This document shows, piece after piece, positions 49,378 through 54,194 of a DNA stretch of 64,000 nt. The DNA is from Alphaproteobacteria bacterium (GTDB lineage Bacteria; Pseudomonadota; Alphaproteobacteria; CALKHQ01): the NCBI GenBank assembly GCA_965227515.1, contig CBDDFZ010000001.1, positions 352,001-416,000 on the forward strand, read 5' to 3'. The notes under the pieces are model-generated. The model worked only from the letters and a program-made list of their open reading frames with translations. It had not been told where the DNA came from and did no database searches. Both the position numbers and the translations under genes were made by a program. Each line of letters begins with the position of its first letter. Position 1 is the stretch's first letter.

Positions 49378-49749
49378 CTAACCCACGTCCTTCCACACGC
49401 CATTGGTGTCGCGGCAGGCGGTATCGGATTCACTGCGCGTACCGCTGTCCTCCACGAACGTCACTGTGTAGTCGCGGCAGAACAGGCCCGACTGGGTTTG
49501 GTAGGTGCGCACCGGCAACACAGTCCCCTGGTGCCCGGTTGCCGCATCCTGCCAAGATTCCGCCACCCCGCTCGGATTGCCCTCCAGCGCAATCTGGATC
49601 GCGGTGCGAACGACACCGCTGCGCGCGGGTCCGTTGCCGCTGCCGCCGCTATTCAGCGACAGGCACCCGCCCAACAGCATCGCCGTCAGGCAGGCGATTG
49701 TCGTACGCCGATACGCCGACGCGCGCACGGAAACGCTATTGCCAGCCAT
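49378..49749 (-). CDS. Lipoprotein with 17-kDa surface-antigen-like (RT0821/Lpp0805-type) domain
   Basis: Lipobox LGG-C; 'ALE...W......G...PVRTYQ...G.FCRDY...TACR...G.W'; overlaps the upstream Hint gene by 14 nt. Confidence 0.75.
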   Translation of the reverse strand: MAGNSVSVRASAYRRTTIACLTAMLLGGCLSLNSGGSGNGPARSGVVRTAIQIALEGNPSGVAESWQDAATGHQGTVLPVRTYQTQSGLFCRDYTVTFVEDSGTRSESDTACRDTNGVWKDVG

Positions 49750-50752
49750 TTTCGATCAGCTCCTGCTCCTCGGACGCGGTCAAATCGTCCCCAACCTGAC
49801 GAAGGTCCTCCGGATCGGGCGCCTGCCCATCGAAATAATCGAAGGAACCGCCGCTTTGGCCGGATTGGCCGCTGAAACCGCTTTCACCCGAGCCGCCGCT
49901 GCCGCCTGAACTGCCGCTGCCGCCAGAGCCGCCGGACCCACCACTGCCGCCGGAGCCGCCAGACTCGCCGCCACCCGAGCCCGAACCGCCGGAATGGCCA
50001 TCGTCGTCATCATCGTCGTCGTCGTCATCGCCGCCGCCGGAGCCGGAGTTGCCGCCACCGCCGGGACCGGAATTGCTGCCGCCGCCGTCATCGTCGTCGT
50101 CGTCATCGCCACCCTTGTTGTGCACCAGGTAGCCGTCCGCGAAATACGTATGGTCGCCGGCCAGGAGCAGGTTGAAGACCTCCAGCTCGGGATCGGCGTC
50201 GTGCGCGTCGATGGACACCACCGTCTCGTGGTCCATTTCGACCACCGGTCGCGGCGCCAGGGCGGTCGCCCCTTCGCTAAGGCTCGCCATCTCCACCCGG
50301 CCGCGCGCCAGCCGGTCGCCGGGGGCCAGCGTTGACACCGCCATCGACGCAACCATGCCGGGGGCCTCGCGCCGCGTCGCCATGGCGTCGATCGCTTTCC
50401 AGCCGTTGGCGGTCATGAACGGGTGTTCGTCGGTCACGAACGGACGACCGCCGTTGAAGCCGTAAAGCTTGCGGCTGCCGAGCCGGGGCCGCTCGATGCC
50501 GATCACACGGTTGGCCCGGCCGCCGCGCCCCATTACCAGCATGCCGACGGCGACTTGCGCGATCGGCAGGCTGCGGCCGTTGGCCAGCAGTACCTCGGTC
50601 TCGCCAGTGAAGCACGACGACGCGTGGGCCGCGTTCAGAATGCCGTCGTCCGTGCCGGTGGGCAGGGTGACCGGCGCCGTGGCCATGGTCAGCGCCACCA
50701 GGCTTGTGGTCGCCAGCAGGCGTGCGTTACGGCGGAATGAGTTCCTTGGCAT
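49736..50752 (-). CDS. Exported Hint-domain (intein-like) precursor with Gly/Ser/Asp-rich C-terminal tail, 338 aa
   Basis: RBS GGGAGG; signal-like leader ending AHA; Hint block A CFTGET (Cys47), block B VTDEHPF, block F VFNL...DHTYFADG, block G LVHN (Asn212). Confidence 0.85.
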   Translation of the reverse strand: MPRNSFRRNARLLATTSLVALTMATAPVTLPTGTDDGILNAAHASSCFTGETEVLLANGRSLPIAQVAVGMLVMGRGGRANRVIGIERPRLGSRKLYGFNGGRPFVTDEHPFMTANGWKAIDAMATRREAPGMVASMAVSTLAPGDRLARGRVEMASLSEGATALAPRPVVEMDHETVVSIDAHDADPELEVFNLLLAGDHTYFADGYLVHNKGGDDDDDDDGGGSNSGPGGGGNSGSGGGDDDDDDDDDDGHSGGSGSGGGESGGSGGSGGSGGSGGSGSSGGSGGSGESGFSGQSGQSGGSFDYFDGQAPDPEDLRQVGDDLTASEEQELIENGWQ

Positions 50753-50806: not shown

Positions 50807-50841
50807 CGATAACGGCGCGACGCGGCTTTCCATCCGCACAT
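50807..50841 (-). promoter_or_regulatory. Putative ECF-type promoter facing the Hint gene
   Basis: Minus strand ATGTGCGGATGGAA-N11-GCCGTTATCG, twin of the motif at 50854-50888. Confidence 0.55.
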
Positions 50842-50853
50842 GAAACAAGATTA

Positions 50854-50888
50854 ATGTGGCGAAGGAATATGTGCCTGGGCCGTTATCG
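50854..50888 (+). promoter_or_regulatory. Putative ECF-type (autoregulatory) promoter facing the sigma gene
   Basis: ATGTGGCGAAGGAA-N11-GCCGTTATCG with CGTT -10-like element. Confidence 0.55.
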
Positions 50889-50926: not shown

Positions 50927-51472
50927 ATGGATGAACTCAGCGGTCGACGCATGATCGAGATGCTGCCACGACTGCGGCGCTTCGCCTATGGCCTGTGCGG
51001 CGATCCGCATGACGCCGACGACCTGGTGCAGCACACATGCCAGCGGGCCATCGACCGGTTCGACAACTGGCGGCCCGGCACCAGCCTGGAAAACTGGATG
51101 TTCGCCATAGCGCGCAATGCCTACCTGGACCTGTACCGCAGCCGACAGGTGCGGGCCGACCATGCCGCCGCCGTGCGCGCCACGACGGACGGCAGCCTGG
51201 ATGGCGAAGGGCGCGCGGAGCATGGCGTGATGATCGGCGAGATTGTGCCGTTGCTTGGCCGGATGCCGGAGGATCAGCGCACTGCCCTGCTGCTGGCCCT
51301 GGTGGAGGGCCTGAGCTACCAGGAAATCGCCGATATCCAGCAGGTCCCGGTCGGCACCGTGACCAGCCGCATCGGCCGTGCCCGTCAGACCCTGCAGCAG
51401 GCCCTGTCCAGCGAGGCCGGTACGCCGCATCAGCGAGAAGGAGGTGAGTTCGATGTCGCACGCCGTCAGTGA
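50927..51472 (+). CDS. ECF RNA polymerase sigma factor
   Basis: LPRLRRFA..L.G...DADDLVQ, WMFAIARN and GLSYQEIA....VPVGTVTSRIGRAR. Confidence 0.93.
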   Translation: MDELSGRRMIEMLPRLRRFAYGLCGDPHDADDLVQHTCQRAIDRFDNWRPGTSLENWMFAIARNAYLDLYRSRQVRADHAAAVRATTDGSLDGEGRAEHGVMIGEIVPLLGRMPEDQRTALLLALVEGLSYQEIADIQQVPVGTVTSRIGRARQTLQQALSSEAGTPHQREGGEFDVARRQ

Positions 51473-52106
51473 CGCGACCCTGATCGCCTACCATCATAAC
51501 CGCCTGTCCGAGCGCGAGGCCAGGGACGTTGCGGCAACCCTGAAGGCGGATCGCGAGGCCGCGGTGCGCCATGCCGCGCTGGTGACCGAGATCTCCCTGC
51601 TTGGCGTCGCGGTCGGCCGCATCGACCGCCTGCCCGCGCCGCCCGAGGCCGAGGACATGATCAGAGCGGCCACCACAAGCGGACCGCGCCGGTCCAACCG
51701 TGGCGCGGCCTGGCTCAGCCGCGGCGCTGCGTTCCAGGCGCTGGCGGCGTCGCTGTTGCTCGCCATCGGTGTTGCCGCCGGCTTCGCGGTGGCCGAATGG
51801 CGCCACGCCCGCGATGCCGAGAGCCAACGTATCGCCGCCCAAGACCTGGAGCAGGCCCGCGCCCACAGCCGGCAGACCGCGCTGAACATGCTGGCCAGCG
51901 GCAACTCCTACCTGCTCGCCGCCGACGACCGGAGCTGGACGGTCGAGGTGATGCCGGTGCGTACGTTCCAGAACGCAAACGGCGCGTTCTGCCGCGAATA
52001 TCGGGAGACCTGGCAGCTCGGCGCCACGGTAGGTGAGAGCTACCGCATCGCCTGCCGCGACGAGGTCGGCAACTGGCAAGCGGTTGCAACGCTGCAAACG
52101 AGCTGA
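51453..52106 (+). CDS. Membrane-anchored anti-sigma factor with C-terminal surface-antigen-like domain
   Basis: RBS AAGGAGG; N-terminal 'L.AY....L' anti-sigma domain; TM 'ALAASLLLAIGVAAGF'; C-terminal PVRTFQ..NG.FCREY...ACRD..G.W. Confidence 0.8.
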   Translation: MSHAVSDATLIAYHHNRLSEREARDVAATLKADREAAVRHAALVTEISLLGVAVGRIDRLPAPPEAEDMIRAATTSGPRRSNRGAAWLSRGAAFQALAASLLLAIGVAAGFAVAEWRHARDAESQRIAAQDLEQARAHSRQTALNMLASGNSYLLAADDRSWTVEVMPVRTFQNANGAFCREYRETWQLGATVGESYRIACRDEVGNWQAVATLQTS

Positions 52107-52119
52107 TGGCCGAGGGGCG

Positions 52120-53058
52120 GTGCACGTGATCAACGGCAAGGCGCTCGCGGACCAGCGCACGGCGGAAGGCGCCGATCCGCCCGTTATCGACATGCGCGAC
52201 AAAGGCATCGGTGATCTGGTGGTCACCTGCTGGCTCGCCCACAGTGCGGCCGCTGTCGGCCGCGAGCTGCGCATCAACCCGCGTGGACTGGACACGGTGT
52301 GCCATCTGCTCAGTGTCACCGCACCGGTGCTGACCACGGCGGACGCCGACAACTGGGCCAAGACCGACGGCATCGGTCACCGCTTCGAGTACGCGCAGGT
52401 GGCGCAGGGCCGCCCGATGACCCGCTTCGGCGCCTGGGCGCAGTCGCTCGGCCTGCCGGGCCTGCAGCCGGTACGACCGCGCTACAGCGAGGCCACCGAC
52501 GAGGCCGACTGGGCGGAGGAGGCATGGGCGGCCTCGGCCGAGCCGGGCCAGTTGCGGGTCGCCATGTTCCCGGAGGTGGCGTGGCTGATACGGCGCTGGC
52601 CGCCGGCCTATTTCATCGACCTCGCCGACATGCTGAAGGCCAAGGGCGCGGCGATTGTGATGGTCGGGGCAACCAAGGACATGGTCAGCCAGATGGGCAG
52701 CCGCTGGTATGCCGCCTTCCCGCTGCCCCGGACGGCCGCGTTGATGGCCCGCGCCGATATCGTGATCGGCAACGATTCCGGGCCGGCCCATCTGGCCGGC
52801 ACCATCGGCACGCCGACCTTCGTTGCCGCCGGCCCCACCGACGGCGACCTGGTGTTCGCCCATGACGACAATGTGCGCTGCGTCGGCCTGCCGCCGGGAA
52901 GGCTCGCCTGCCACCCCTGCCACTACGCGGTCGCGCGCGGCTATCGCGACGCCTGCAAGGTCGGCGGCTGCCAGGCGCTGATGACGCTGACCCCCGACGC
53001 GGTGTTCGACTGGCTATGGCCGCAAGTGAAGTCTGCGTCGGTACGCAAGGACAGGTGA
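52120..53058 (+). CDS. Glycosyltransferase family 9 (heptosyltransferase-like)
   Basis: GIGDLV, RRWP...F, 'IGNDSGPAHLAG..GTPT...GPT' and C-terminal CHPC...C...C; GTG start inferred. Confidence 0.82.
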   Translation: MHVINGKALADQRTAEGADPPVIDMRDKGIGDLVVTCWLAHSAAAVGRELRINPRGLDTVCHLLSVTAPVLTTADADNWAKTDGIGHRFEYAQVAQGRPMTRFGAWAQSLGLPGLQPVRPRYSEATDEADWAEEAWAASAEPGQLRVAMFPEVAWLIRRWPPAYFIDLADMLKAKGAAIVMVGATKDMVSQMGSRWYAAFPLPRTAALMARADIVIGNDSGPAHLAGTIGTPTFVAAGPTDGDLVFAHDDNVRCVGLPPGRLACHPCHYAVARGYRDACKVGGCQALMTLTPDAVFDWLWPQVKSASVRKDR

Positions 53059-53146: not shown

Positions 53147-54194
53147 GAGCGGGATCGTTTTATGCGGAAGCGTATCCTGCATTGACGATGTAGTTGTTGC
53201 ATTCGTGTGGCTGGAACGCGTCGAGTAGTTTTCCGATACGCCGCCATGTGTCGTCGATGGTGCGCTCTGCGGCGCGCCTGAGCAGGTGCTTGAGCTTGGC
53301 GAACACCTGCTCGATGGGATTGAGGTCGGGGCTGTAGGGCGGCAGGAAGAGCAGCCTTGCGCCGGCTTGGCGCAGGGCGGCCCGTACGGCCTTGCCCTTG
53401 TGGCTGCCCAGGTTGTCCATGATGACGATGTCGCCGGGTTTGAGCGTCGGCACCAGGATTTGCTCGACATAGGCGAGGAAGGCCTGACCGTTAATCGGGC
53501 CGTCGAAGACGCACGGTGCGGTGAGCTGGTCGCAGCGCAGAGCAGCGAGGAAGGTCAGGGTGCGCCAGCGGCCGTGCGGTGCCTTGCCGACGAGGCGCCG
53601 GCCGCGCCGGCTCCAGCCCCGCAACGGCGCCATGTTGGTCTTGGCCCAGGTCTCGTCAATGAAGACCAGGCGGGCGGGATCAAGTTTCGCCTGATGACGC
53701 TTCCAGCGCGCGCGGCGCCGCGCCACGTCGGGACGATCCTGCTCGCTGGCGAACGCGGTTTTTTTTGAAGCTCAATCCCTCGGCATGCACAAAGCGCCAG
53801 ATCGCGCCGTAGCTCACCCGGATGCCGCGATCGGCCAACTCGCGCTGCAAGGAGCGCAAGGGAAGGTGCGGCTCGGCAGCCAAACGAGCCTGCACGAAGT
53901 CGCGATGCGGCGCCAATATGATCCGCTTGTGGCCACCGACCTTGCCCGGCGCAACGCTCCCGGTGCGCCGATATCGCTGCGACCACTTCACAACCGCAGA
54001 CACGCTCACATCGAACGCGGATGCCACAGAGCGAACCGTCTCACCGGCCATCACCCGGGCAACAGCACGCTCACGAAGATCATTCGAATAGGGTCGACCC
54101 ATCGCGCCAGCCTCCTCTCAAGACCAACACGTTGAATCAGATTGCCACCCGAGTCGGGAATCCCCTTTCGATTCTTCCAAAAAAGACCCCGCTC
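53147..54194 (-). mobile_element. IS630-family insertion sequence (TA duplication)
   Basis: CTA|GAGCGGG ... CCCGCTC|TAG inverted ends; two-ORF transposase. Confidence 0.9.
53160..54102 (-). CDS. IS630 transposase (HTH ORF 53680-54102 plus DDE ORF, joined by a frameshift at an A8 run)
   Basis: YSNDLRER HTH; FIDET, MDNL..HK and LPPYSPDLNPIE; T8 at 53759-53766 on + strand. Confidence 0.9.

Follow-up and report, generated by a model that had tools for sequence, protein, structure and literature searches.

Hint domains of the BIL type have been known in bacteria for two decades, and we know of little that they do beyond the release of toxin domains. The type A BILs end in His-Asn, lack a nucleophile at +1, and occur in variable exported bacterial proteins; in PMC4031507, cleavage products predominate, cleavage is to be expected over splicing, and a splicing mechanism is also described. 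BIL2 of the Tetrahymena protein BUBL1 is a eukaryotic Hint domain flanked by ubiquitin-like domains. A lysine takes part in its chemistry: according to its depositors, it splices via an isopeptide bond to the lysine epsilon-amine, and it is activated by zinc (PMC8616854). In Hedgehog, the Hint (Hog) domain of a secreted precursor matures the signalling part of the same chain, and the ligand, which is N-terminal, is freed by sterol attack on a thioester. On the side of sigma factor control, FecA-FecR-FecI is a case of cell-surface signalling and PhyR-NepR-EcfG a case of partner switching by mimicry.

The stretch of DNA analysed here, which we call the window, comprises 64,000 nucleotides of an alphaproteobacterial genome. 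It contains a conserved module consisting of an ECF sigma factor, an anti-sigma factor, a Hint protein with a tail and a conserved tip, and a lipoprotein (Table 1). The initial annotation had singled out the Hint gene and missed this context. We give an even chance to the reading that the Hint protein is the autoprocessing precursor of a ligand for the ECF signalling system. The arrangement seems not to have been described before; a literature search that left out most subscription journals gave no relevant paper linking a Hint domain to an anti-sigma or ECF factor, and an earlier description may exist.

The locus resembles each of the described systems in part. With the type A BILs and the PT-HINT family (PF07591), the Hint protein shares the Hint fold, including a fold match to the Clostridium thermocellum BIL (2lwy), the N-terminal Cys, the TxxH, the His-Asn, and the lack of Cys, Ser or Thr at +1. 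It differs from both in having an invariant Lys at +1, followed by Gly-Gly, and in lacking a PF07591 match at E<=1. Unlike PF07591 proteins, it carries a spacer and a conserved tip of 25-35 residues in place of a toxin domain, and it sits in an ECF sigma module. The best structural match is BIL2 (6tmm, E 1.8e-8; also 6y75), with a TM of 0.72 on the target, and a lysine in the chemistry of BIL2 is a further point of comparison, but the identity is 17-18% and there is no ubiquitin-like cargo here. The fold match to Hedgehog (1at0) ranks 29th. Compared with Hedgehog, the candidate ligand is C-terminal, its release is proposed to occur through cyclisation of Asn, a sterol-recognition region is lacking, and the candidate receptor is an anti-sigma factor. 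Like the Fec and PhyR systems, the module has a transmembrane anti-sigma factor whose outer domain would, in our proposal, be addressed by a protein ligand, and a paralogous look-alike, here a lipoprotein copy of the sensor, that could compete. It differs from them in having no TonB-dependent receptor and no response-regulator mimic, in its PF16998-like sensor, and in a ligand that would come from Hint autoprocessing. Finally, the lipoprotein belongs with the PF16998 "surface antigen" lipoproteins; in this module, a copy of the domain also forms part of an anti-sigma factor, and a candidate ligand peptide accompanies it.

Table 1. Features of the Hint locus, in window coordinates.
Feature	Position	Strand	Evidence
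Lipoprotein, 123 aa, lipobox LLGG-C29, PF16998 17kDa_Anti_2	49378..49749	(-)	Pfam, counterparts, complex model
Hint-tail-tip protein gene, 338 aa, stop included	49736..50752	(-)	Translation, RBS, relatives
Conserved tip, residues 304-338, core D323-L324..E329..I333..G336-W337-Q338-COOH	49739..49843	(-)	Alignment, helix, complex model
Acidic low-complexity linker, residues 213-303, from invariant KGG	49844..50116	(-)	pLDDT, variable among relatives
Hint domain, Cys47 to Asn212, with T107xxH110 and H211-N212	50117..50614	(-)	Model pLDDT, Foldseek, alignment
Leader, residues 1-44	50621..50752	(-)	Basic start, hydrophobic helix, conserved AxA before (x)SSC
ECF-type promoter-like motif GGAA-N12-CCGTTATC, upstream of Hint gene	50808..50831	(-)	Pattern search
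Same motif, GGAA-N12-CCGTTATC, upstream of ECF sigma gene	50864..50887	(+)	Pattern search
ECF sigma factor, 181 aa	50927..51472	(+)	Sigma70_r2 E 1.7e-16, r4_2 E 1e-16, TIGR02937
Anti-sigma factor, 217 aa from ATG 51453	51453..52106	(+)	NCBIfam antisigma, X-domain homology
Third motif copy, GGAA-N13-CCGTTATC, 3 nt before ATG 52192, after anti-sigma	52164..52188	(+)	Pattern search
Glycosyltransferase family 9-like ORF	52192..53058	(+)	PF01075 E 2.5e-12, motif position

The Hint protein

The 338-aa frame with its stop is the reverse complement of window positions 49736-50752. The leader, Cys47, TxxH, His-Asn, Lys and 126-aa tail given in the initial annotation are all present in the translation, but the location of the gene on the minus strand had been overlooked. 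GGGAGG lies 6 nt 5' of the ATG. A chance frame opposite a high-GC strand was rejected because the protein has relatives: 46 were found by sequence search, the best at 60% identity, and the family extends to 2189 cluster representatives at E<=1e-3, 139 of them at <=1e-30.

The leader contains SFRRNA and a hydrophobic stretch, LLATTSLVALTMATA, and has AHA at residues 42-44; then come Ser45-Ser46 and Cys47. Judged by eye, it has a basic n-region, an h-region of 15-17 residues, and an AxA about 18 residues past the h-region. Residues 4-25 form a 22-residue helix in the AlphaFold model, and AxA(x)SSCF is the consensus at the junction with the Hint domain in the family alignments. This composition suggests that the leader is likely a Sec signal peptide, and it may alternatively be a signal anchor. 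A Tat signal was rejected since the twin-Arg is not kept among relatives. Cys47 was also rejected as a lipoprotein cysteine: the residue at -3 is A, D, G, E or S rather than hydrophobic, and the Cys lies some 20 residues past the hydrophobic stretch.

The Hint domain runs for 166 residues from Cys47 to Asn212, with T107-D-E-H110 inside and Lys213 directly after His211-Asn212. C47, T107, H110, H211, N212 and K213 are invariant in 58/58 aligned family members, and G follows K213 in at least 90% of the 58, the tail beginning with an invariant KGG. The initial annotation had given the +1 residue correctly as Lys rather than Cys, Ser or Thr, without the family-wide invariance. In the AlphaFold model, pLDDT exceeds 90 across residues 47-215. 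Foldseek returned 59 PDB matches to the modelled domain at E<=1e-3; among the matches listed, all are intein, BIL, Hedgehog or Vint structures, and the top ones include BIL2, inteins, the C. thermocellum BIL and Hedgehog. As modelled, then, the domain is a true Hint fold. In Pfam it remains below the gathering score for PF05203 (31.7 vs 32.1), PF14623 (21.6 vs 27), PF13403 (17.8 vs 28.4) and PF01079 (13 vs 29.7), and the near misses (Vint E 2e-4, Hint_2 E 4.5e-3) span its N-terminal half only. The initial annotation had named Hint_2, PT-HINT and Intein_splicing as families to compare; Hint_2 thus appears below threshold, while PT-HINT and Intein_splicing gave no match at E<=1 in the Pfam search. 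PF07591 was found only on distant relatives, at 33% identity.

With its C-terminal His-Asn and no +1 nucleophile, the domain has the trait of a type A BIL; secretion was judged by eye from the leader. A canonical intein was rejected on account of Lys213 standing at +1 in place of Cys, Ser or Thr, and an intein in a conserved host site was rejected on account of the flanks, which are the leader plus Ser-Ser on one side and a low-complexity tail on the other. No endonuclease family matched the 166-aa domain in Pfam or NCBIfam; the database label "Hint domain-containing homing endonuclease" carried by relatives is not borne out. In many family members, the Hint domain stands at the extreme C-terminus of a cargo protein, which then ends in HNK(GG).

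The ECF sigma module and the X domain

Divergent from the Hint gene lie the sigma and anti-sigma genes, which are adjacent, co-directional and overlapping. The sigma factor has sigma regions 2 and 4 only and scores 83 bits against TIGR02937 (cut-off 42.9). The anti-sigma factor matches the NCBIfam antisigma model below cut-off (E 4.6e-6), and its gene has an alternative start, a GTG at 51378. A hydrophobic segment, recognized by eye, is followed by a periplasmic C-terminal domain at about 51753-52085. This domain is homologous to the lipoprotein encoded downstream of the Hint gene (BLASTP 3e-10; lipoprotein-family HMM E 4.1e-20). One domain is thus common to the two proteins, a PF16998-like, two-cysteine domain that we call X. 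In Pfam, the lipoprotein matches PF16998 at 34.7 bits and the anti-sigma domain scores only 13.3, the cut-off being 26.6. Among the downstream proteins of other loci, 27/28 match PF16998, and most of these 28 counterparts have a lipobox-like L-x-[GA]-C, read by eye as was the LLGG-C29 of the window. The lipoprotein residues that face the tip in the complex model (see below) recur in the X domains of anti-sigma factors: in 24 of these domains, and in lipoprotein numbering, S60, C91, R92, C112 and R113 do not vary, and L55, R81, T82 and W119 are at least 90% conserved. The anti-sigma X domain of the window itself is the most divergent in the alignment, being without W66 and the NPDSG stretch.

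No structural relative of X can be named, although the fold is not thereby new: Foldseek gave 0 PDB matches at E<=1e-3, the best sequence match in the PDB has E 0.36, and the best VIA-align Z of 5.8 (2h1t, rmsd 2.4 over 67 residues) falls within the noise range of that tool. No function for the PF16998 family was found in the literature, in a search leaving out most subscription journals.

The same gene order is found in the window and in loci L002, L009, L014 and L025, which together span alpha- and gammaproteobacteria. In the window, the end of the Hint gene and the start of the lipoprotein gene share 14 nt, and the two genes overlap or almost abut in 5/5 loci read. For a wider view, the lipoprotein HMM was run on 35 genomes with leader-type Hint loci, and coordinates were compared by hand. 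An X-domain frame lies just downstream of the Hint gene on the same strand in 30/35, a divergent upstream one (the anti-sigma factor) is present in 31/35, and 34/35 have at least one within about 3 kb of the Hint gene, with only 1-7 copies per genome. The association follows the tip: an X gene is within 3 kb in 10/10 tip-bearing loci read and in 0/5 tip-less ones (L040, L041, L058, L068 and L077). In four tip-bearing loci (L029, L049, L039 and L042), X is present in the anti-sigma factor but no lipoprotein gene follows the Hint gene, and the lipoprotein is thus not a universal partner. The genome of the window has 11 X-domain matches and one Hint gene, and X is therefore not a dedicated tip receptor.

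A promoter-like motif of ECF type precedes each of the divergent units. The pattern GGAAN{12,13}CCGTTATC, which was derived from two of its three matches, occurs 3 times in the window and never in 100 shuffled versions; in the 5.52-Mb genome it also occurs 3 times, all at the Hint locus, and the reversed control gives 0. In 10 loci, the Hint gene is preceded by a related, conserved -35/-10-like motif. The surroundings of the Hint operon gave neither a sigma-70-type promoter nor an intrinsic terminator. The third copy stands before the glycosyltransferase frame, which is possibly a third unit of the sigma regulon. That frame is peculiar to the genome of the window and lies outside the conserved module, being missing at the equivalent place in L002, L009, L014 and L025.

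The tail, the tip and the complex model

The 126-aa tail (residues 213-338) has D-runs of 7 and 10 and GGS-type repeats. It matches no toxin or other domain family in Pfam or NCBIfam, and residues 221-307 have pLDDT below 50 in the AlphaFold model, in agreement with the earlier description of a low-complexity, non-toxin cargo. The proposal that the poly-Asp runs bind cations was not supported: these runs are not kept among relatives, so cation binding by them is no feature of the family. Linker length and composition vary widely there, with mixtures of G, S, E and D, GD repeats, and R/D-rich stretches, and an acidic flexible spacer fits these sequences better. Between parts that work while joined, one would expect a spacer that is long, flexible and variable in length, which favours a tethered over a released tip.

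The last 25-35 residues of the tail are conserved. The initial annotation had called this end a short binding tip and staked its reading on conservation in homologs, which the relatives bear out; the last 35 residues are identical to the sequence it quoted. A tip is present in 16/46 relatives, and in the 17-sequence alignment L324, E329, I333, G336 and W337 are invariant and D323 nearly so. Residues 326-334 form a helix in the AlphaFold model (pLDDT 75-93), and the tip might dock on its own Hint domain, since the monomer pLDDT reaches 93. Most tip-bearing members keep GW(Q/K/R)-COOH at the extreme C-terminus; in four loci, the chain goes on for 3 residues beyond the motif with the W. An acidic tail without the tip is found in 8/46 relatives (P0004-7, 11, 12, 16 and 17), most of them on contigs of 1-5 kb and P0005 on a 15-kb contig. 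At locus L040, the repeat in the tail is of another kind, and both the tip and a neighbouring X gene are missing. A homolog search with the tip only (residues 299-338) gave no candidate sharing three 5-residue words, a result that is uninformative for a 40-aa query.

As to what the tip would bind, the translationally coupled downstream lipoprotein emerges as the candidate partner. The complex model of tip and lipoprotein has an ipSAE of 0.81 in all three runs, and the best of 3 controls has 0.01. The ipSAE mark is reached by 58/80 solved complexes and 2/110 mismatched pairs, counts that are only rough here because our own alignments were used. The three runs agree in at least 74% of contacts, with partner pLDDT of at least 74. 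The contacts fall on conserved residues on both sides: D323, L324, E329, I333 and W337 of the tip, and E56-S60, R81-C91 and C112-R113 of the lipoprotein. With no solved relative of X by sequence or by fold, it is unlikely that the prediction merely reproduces a solved complex. The model thus supports binding of the tip to the lipoprotein X domain, and the tip probably docks onto both the lipoprotein and the anti-sigma sensor.

Proposed mechanism and competing readings

In the proposed mechanism, the sigma factor would most likely transcribe its own operon and the Hint-lipoprotein operon from the near-identical promoters. The Hint protein would be an exported precursor composed of leader, BIL-like Hint domain, acidic disordered spacer, and a short helix with a free C-terminus (..DL....E...I..GWQ). 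The Hint domain would most likely cut after Asn212 via a succinimide, as type A BILs do, and free a KGG-spacer-tip peptide, with the autoprocessing setting the amount of available tip. That tip would be the ligand of the X domain, both in the co-translated outer-membrane-type lipoprotein and in the anti-sigma factor, whose periplasmic sensor it forms. Competition for the tip between the anti-sigma factor and the lipoprotein, the latter being a paralogous decoy or co-receptor, would set sigma activity. That the protein is exported and cut at Asn212, that its tip binds the anti-sigma factor, and which way the regulation runs are inferred. If the mechanism is true, autoprocessing of a ligand precursor would be a new input to an ECF sigma factor, and the "17-kDa antigen-like" domain would gain a function.

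The Hint domain may instead stay joined to the tail. The spacer would then be a leash with which the tip reaches the lipoprotein or the anti-sigma factor, the protein would perhaps be held at the inner membrane by an uncleaved leader and freed by cleavage between Ser46 and Cys47, and the signal would be the presence or position of the whole protein. The spacer is very variable in length yet always lies between Hint and tip, the leader is a 22-residue helix in the model, and only N-terminal cleavage can matter in the cargo proteins that end in HNK(GG). Cys47 is invariant and is not needed for purely C-terminal cleavage; its invariance is unexplained by release of the tail alone because the N-extein would be only Ser-Ser after cleavage at the AHA. 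We nevertheless regard a tethered tip as unlikely: His211-Asn212 is invariant in tail-bearing members too, the AxA before (x)SSC resembles by eye a signal-peptidase site, whose use would remove the anchor, and type A BILs with His-Asn cleave at the C-terminus (PMC4031507). The invariant Lys raises the further question of ligation, in which it would react through its alpha-amine, as in a type A BIL, or its epsilon-amine, as in the BIL2 isopeptide, so that the Hint domain is excised and its flanks are joined, or one flank is joined to another protein. K213 with its adjoining Gly would suit such a role; so would the structural match to BIL2, whose isopeptide bond to the epsilon-amine is described in PMC8616854, and the splicing mechanism described for type A BILs in PMC4031507. 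But ligation is improbable, since an N-extein of Ser-Ser left after leader removal would make joining of no useful consequence, cleavage products dominate among the BILs tested (PMC4031507), and the conserved Lys is perhaps merely structural.

It is also conceivable that the gene pair is akin to a polymorphic toxin, with the Hint domain freeing a bacteriocin- or microcin-like peptide directed at other cells and the lipoprotein serving as its immunity protein. The order is that of toxin-immunity pairs, a Hint protein and then a small, tightly coupled partner; the complex model backs binding (0.81 against 0.01 for the best control); and PT-HINT is found on distant relatives. The tip, however, is conserved rather than polymorphic and amounts to some 25-35 residues of acidic helix without a toxin family match, the would-be immunity domain doubles as the sensor of the neighbouring anti-sigma factor, there is no Rhs, filamentous or secretion-system N-terminal part, and the locus-specific ECF-type motif stands on all units, which leaves a toxin pair very improbable. 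Substrates of type I secretion have a Gly/Asp-rich region ahead of a C-terminal signal, and the known sorting tags at the C-terminus are hydrophobic with a basic end. The tail recalls the former in its Gly/Asp-rich region, and the placement of the tip at the extreme C-terminus, with GW(Q/K/R)-COOH in most members, would suit a signal recognized, for instance, by a dedicated exporter or by a protease that processes C-termini. Against such a signal, the protein already has an N-terminal leader, the module contains no transporter gene, the acidic amphipathic helix is unlike a sorting tag, four loci continue for 3 residues past the W-containing motif, and X-domain genes accompany the tip, which the complex model places on one of their products. 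We give a sorting or secretion signal hardly any credence.

Returning to the ligand precursor, one may tentatively go further and compare it to Hedgehog-type ligand maturation in a bacterium. The Hint domain would then be a chemically gated single-turnover switch that frees a C-terminal ligand, to be read by the anti-sigma factor and buffered by the decoy lipoprotein. We consider this possible but rather doubtful. Candidate gates would be redox, pH and metal ions, the last because zinc activates BIL2, the closest structural relative (PMC8616854).

The module offers one BIL subfamily a specific role that lends itself to testing, and its partners can be named: a candidate ligand peptide, two candidate receptor domains that are paralogous (PF16998), and a read-out through three promoter-like motifs unique to the locus. 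Cultured carriers include Oceanibacterium hippocampi, Pelagibius litoralis, P. marinus, Zavarzinia sp., Marinobacterium nitratireducens and Motiliproteus sediminis, and the tests are therefore within the reach of ordinary genetics and biochemistry.

The Hint protein and its relatives

The reverse complement of window 49736-50752 encodes 338 aa and a stop codon, and its ATG is preceded by GGGAGG at a distance of 6 nt. The parts listed in the initial annotation are all present: a 44-residue leader with a basic start, a hydrophobic stretch (LLATTSLVALTMATA) and AHA at 42-44; Ser-Ser, then Cys47; the TxxH motif T107-D-E-H110; His211-Asn212-Lys213; and a tail of 126 residues that contains Gly/Ser repeats and two runs of Asp, and whose 35-residue end, the tip, reads as quoted there. 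Among the domain models it had proposed, Hint_2 is recovered weakly in Pfam (E 4.5e-3), while PT-HINT and Intein_splicing give no match at E<=1. PF05203 (31.7 against a threshold of 32.1) and Vint (E 2e-4) are, like Hint_2, near threshold, and NCBIfam returns weak intein N-terminal and C-terminal matches and nothing else.

In an AlphaFold model with a 58-member alignment as input, the Hint domain has pLDDT >90, residues 4-25 form a helix, residues 221-307 fall below 50, and the final 28 residues, which include helices at 314-317 and 326-334, lie between 75 and 93. Foldseek against the PDB gave 59 matches at E<=1e-3; among the matches listed, all are Hint-fold proteins. The top match is BIL2 of the Tetrahymena BUBL1 locus (6tmm, E 1.8e-8), and others include mini-inteins, a bacterial intein-like (BIL) domain of C. 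thermocellum (2lwy, rank 24), Hedgehog (1at0, rank 29) and a Vint domain.

A word-indexed search with residues 1-215 found 46 relatives, the top one at 60% identity; exhaustive phmmer at E<=1e-3 extended the family to 2189 cluster representatives, of which 935 reach <=1e-10 and 139 reach <=1e-30. C47, F48, T107, E109, H110, P111, N194, H211, N212 and K213 are invariant in the 58-member alignment. The family has three architectures, all retaining the +1 Lys: leader, Hint and tail as in the window; cargo plus Hint ending in HNK(GG); and giants in which Hint copies number up to five or more. By their sequences, the latter two point to a putative N-terminal release of cargo. The term 'homing endonuclease' in the database names of relatives is an artefact that comes from PF05203. 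Giant members of 1700-4100 aa (P0048, P0049, P0053, P0054 and others) have 2-8 matched stretches each. The subfamily also sits C-terminally on unrelated cargo stopping at HNK(GG), with a FecR-like N-terminal part at locus L077 and porin-like ones at L041 and L058. One close relative, P0017, reads ..GYLVPTKGG.. in place of the ..LVHNKGG.. of all others, so that the His-Asn pair is missing; it comes from a 1.1-kb contig, and a sequencing error is possible.

The expectation that the tip is conserved in homologues held. Sixteen of the 46 relatives end in a matching motif. Aligning 17 tip-bearing sequences shows L324, E329, I333, G336 and W337 to be invariant and D323 nearly so. Eight have an acidic tail and no tip, mostly on short contigs, and the remainder are cargo-type, multi-Hint or PT-HINT-like. 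Between KGG and the tip, relatives differ both in how long the segment is and in what it is made of: mixtures of G, S, D and E, GD repeats or, in Marinobacterium, a stretch rich in R and D. What is conserved is therefore the tip, and the poly-Asp runs are a local trait. A second flavour of tip, ..PAGPPLSPDQE...I...W.Q.., extends three residues beyond the Trp-containing motif in Geminicoccaceae and related MAGs.

The four-gene module and its promoter-like motif

The evidence that the Hint gene belongs to a module is strong, and we hold the module and its co-regulation to be very probable. Downstream, a gene that shares 14 nt with the end of the Hint gene encodes a 123-aa lipoprotein (LLGG-C29) whose score for PF16998 (17kDa_Anti_2) exceeds the threshold. 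Upstream, in divergent orientation, are an ECF sigma factor gene (region 2 and region 4 matches, TIGR02937) and, overlapping it, an anti-sigma gene. The C-terminal 75-80 residues of the anti-sigma factor, presumably periplasmic, share homology with the lipoprotein (BLASTP 3e-10; lipoprotein-family HMM E 4.1e-20; alignment); we call the shared two-cysteine domain X. On reading, the identical four-gene order was found in Oceanibacterium (L002), Pelagibius (L009), Zavarzinia (L014) and the gammaproteobacterium Marinobacterium (L025).

The alignment query covered 78 loci in reference genomes. The lipoprotein HMM was run on the 35 genomes with a leader-including Hint locus, and coordinates were compared by hand. 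An X frame follows the Hint gene directly on the same strand in 30 of the 35, including three (L009, L010, L023) where the matched gene is a second copy after the lipoprotein, as confirmed by reading in L009 alone. A divergent upstream X frame, the anti-sigma gene, is found in 31, and 34 have at least one X frame within about 3 kb, at merely 1-7 X copies per genome. The downstream frame is absent from L029, L049 and L040, and a contig end cuts the locus in L027 and L047; the upstream frame is absent from L007, L008 (contig end), L040 and L054. In 18 control genomes whose Hint locus lacks leader similarity, X adjoins the Hint gene only in L039, L042 and L046, and on reading all three encode leader-plus-tip proteins. 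Among loci read, an X gene lies within 3 kb in 10 of 10 with a tip and 0 of 5 without (L040, L041, L058, L068, L077); an X gene seemingly near the Hint gene of L077 was a coordinate coincidence on another contig. PF16998 matches 27 of 28 downstream proteins. The module is patchy, because the Hint protein occurs in 1 of 3 same-family genomes, with one weak match elsewhere among the 40 relatives of the source genome searched.

Upstream of the Hint gene, ten loci share a -35/-10-like motif, GGGAwGAAA, spacer, GTTaTC, which we take to be of the kind used by ECF sigma factors. In the window, the pattern GGAA-N12/13-CCGTTATC has three matches, against 0 in 100 shuffles; two of them defined it, whereas the third, an independent match, lies no more than 1.4 kb away from those two. 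These are its only matches in the 5.52-Mb genome (reversed control, 0). The position of the third copy suggests a leaderless glycosyltransferase transcript, and with it an envelope-modifying output of the regulon, in the source genome only.

Coordinates of the Hint gene, motif copies and associated frames
Feature	Sequence	Position	Strand	Remark
Hint gene	window	49736-50752	minus	
GGAA-N12-CCGTTATC	window	50808-50831	minus	before Hint gene
GGAA-N12-CCGTTATC	window	50864-50887	plus	before sigma gene
GGAA-N13-CCGTTATC	window	52164-52188	plus	just past anti-sigma stop, 3 nt before ATG
Third motif copy plus glycosyltransferase family 9 (heptosyltransferase-like) ORF	window	52164-53058	plus	after anti-sigma gene; ATG 52192, third motif copy upstream
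Overlapping ORFs	window	53680-54102, 53160-53726	minus	directly after glycosyltransferase ORF; by eye, resemble the two halves of an IS630-type transposase
Tandem Hint-tail-tip paralogues	L009	3858-4862, 6001-6987		
224-255-aa ORF after lipoprotein	L002; L009	7460-8227; 5237-5911		conserved; by eye resembles PiuC-type 2OG-Fe(II) oxygenases
Leader, Hint and Gly/Ser/Asp tail	L040	5944-7449		Ectothiorhodospiraceae
ORF with RRRWL-type repeat	L039	5887-7599		tip in frame again at end
GGGSD repeats carried on	L039	6344-7570		another frame

Pelagibius and some Kiloniellaceae have such tandem paralogues, seen by coordinates also in L010 and L023; they are separated by the lipoprotein gene and one further gene, and the sigma/anti-sigma pair adjoins the first paralogue alone. 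The 224-255-aa frame has no counterpart in the window. The source genome has 11 matches to X and a single Hint gene, with several of the further X copies within open frames of 130-250 aa.

Predicted tip partner and cleavage chemistry

Complex models of the tip (residues 299-338, tip-bearer alignment) with lipoprotein residues 40-123 (28-row alignment) gave an ipSAE of 0.81 in each of 3 runs, the top of 3 controls being 0.01. Of solved complexes, 58 of 80 reach the mark, as do 2 of 110 mismatched pairs; these counts are a rough guide here since our own alignments were used. At least 74% of contacts agreed between runs, with partner pLDDT of at least 74. The lowest-error contacts join lipoprotein R81/T82/Y83 to tip D323/L324, E56-S60 to E329/I333, and E56/F90/R113 to W337, and fall on conserved residues of both. 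Sequence and fold searches found no solved relative of X, so recall of a solved complex is an unlikely source of the score. The models support binding of the tip to the lipoprotein domain, and we regard tip-X binding as probable. It is also reasonable to suppose that the tip may bind the anti-sigma sensor, because the interface residues are kept in 24 anti-sigma X domains. L029, L049, L039 and L042 have a tip and an anti-sigma X and no lipoprotein, which suggests that the anti-sigma factor may be the more general partner.

The Hint protein is ruled out as an intein, since it lacks a +1 nucleophile, a host protein and an endonuclease. It is predicted by analogy to work like type A BILs, differing in the lack of a PF07591 match. 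According to PMC4031507 and PMC5874633, these end in His-Asn, have no +1 nucleophile and chiefly cleave, with occasional splicing when the freed amine attacks the thioester. On that behaviour, the most likely chemistry would be cyclisation of Asn212, setting the KGG-spacer-tip peptide free. Such release leaves unaccounted for the invariance of Cys47, whose N-extein would be Ser-Ser alone, the role of the invariant Lys, and the retention of a long spacer. For BIL2, the structure that matches best, the depositors report a zinc-activated reaction that forms an isopeptide bond (PMC8616854), so that Hint chemistry here may be a lysine-dependent or metal-gated variant. Cleavage of the Hint protein is judged slightly more likely than not. 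The mechanism is plausible and partly model-supported, and for the whole signalling picture our judgement is evenly balanced. BIL autoprocessing and ECF signalling are each already known; a search of open-access papers and preprints found none that connects Hint domains with ECF sigma factors, and none on PF16998 function.

Two tails depart from the common form. In L040, a 17-residue unit (..THRSGTETAAQHAAREA..), repeated in tandem about nine times, replaces the tip, and no X-domain gene is nearby. In L039, GGGSD repeats give way to a long RRRWL-type repeat within the tail frame, which suggests that the assembly has a frame error or a shifty repeat here.
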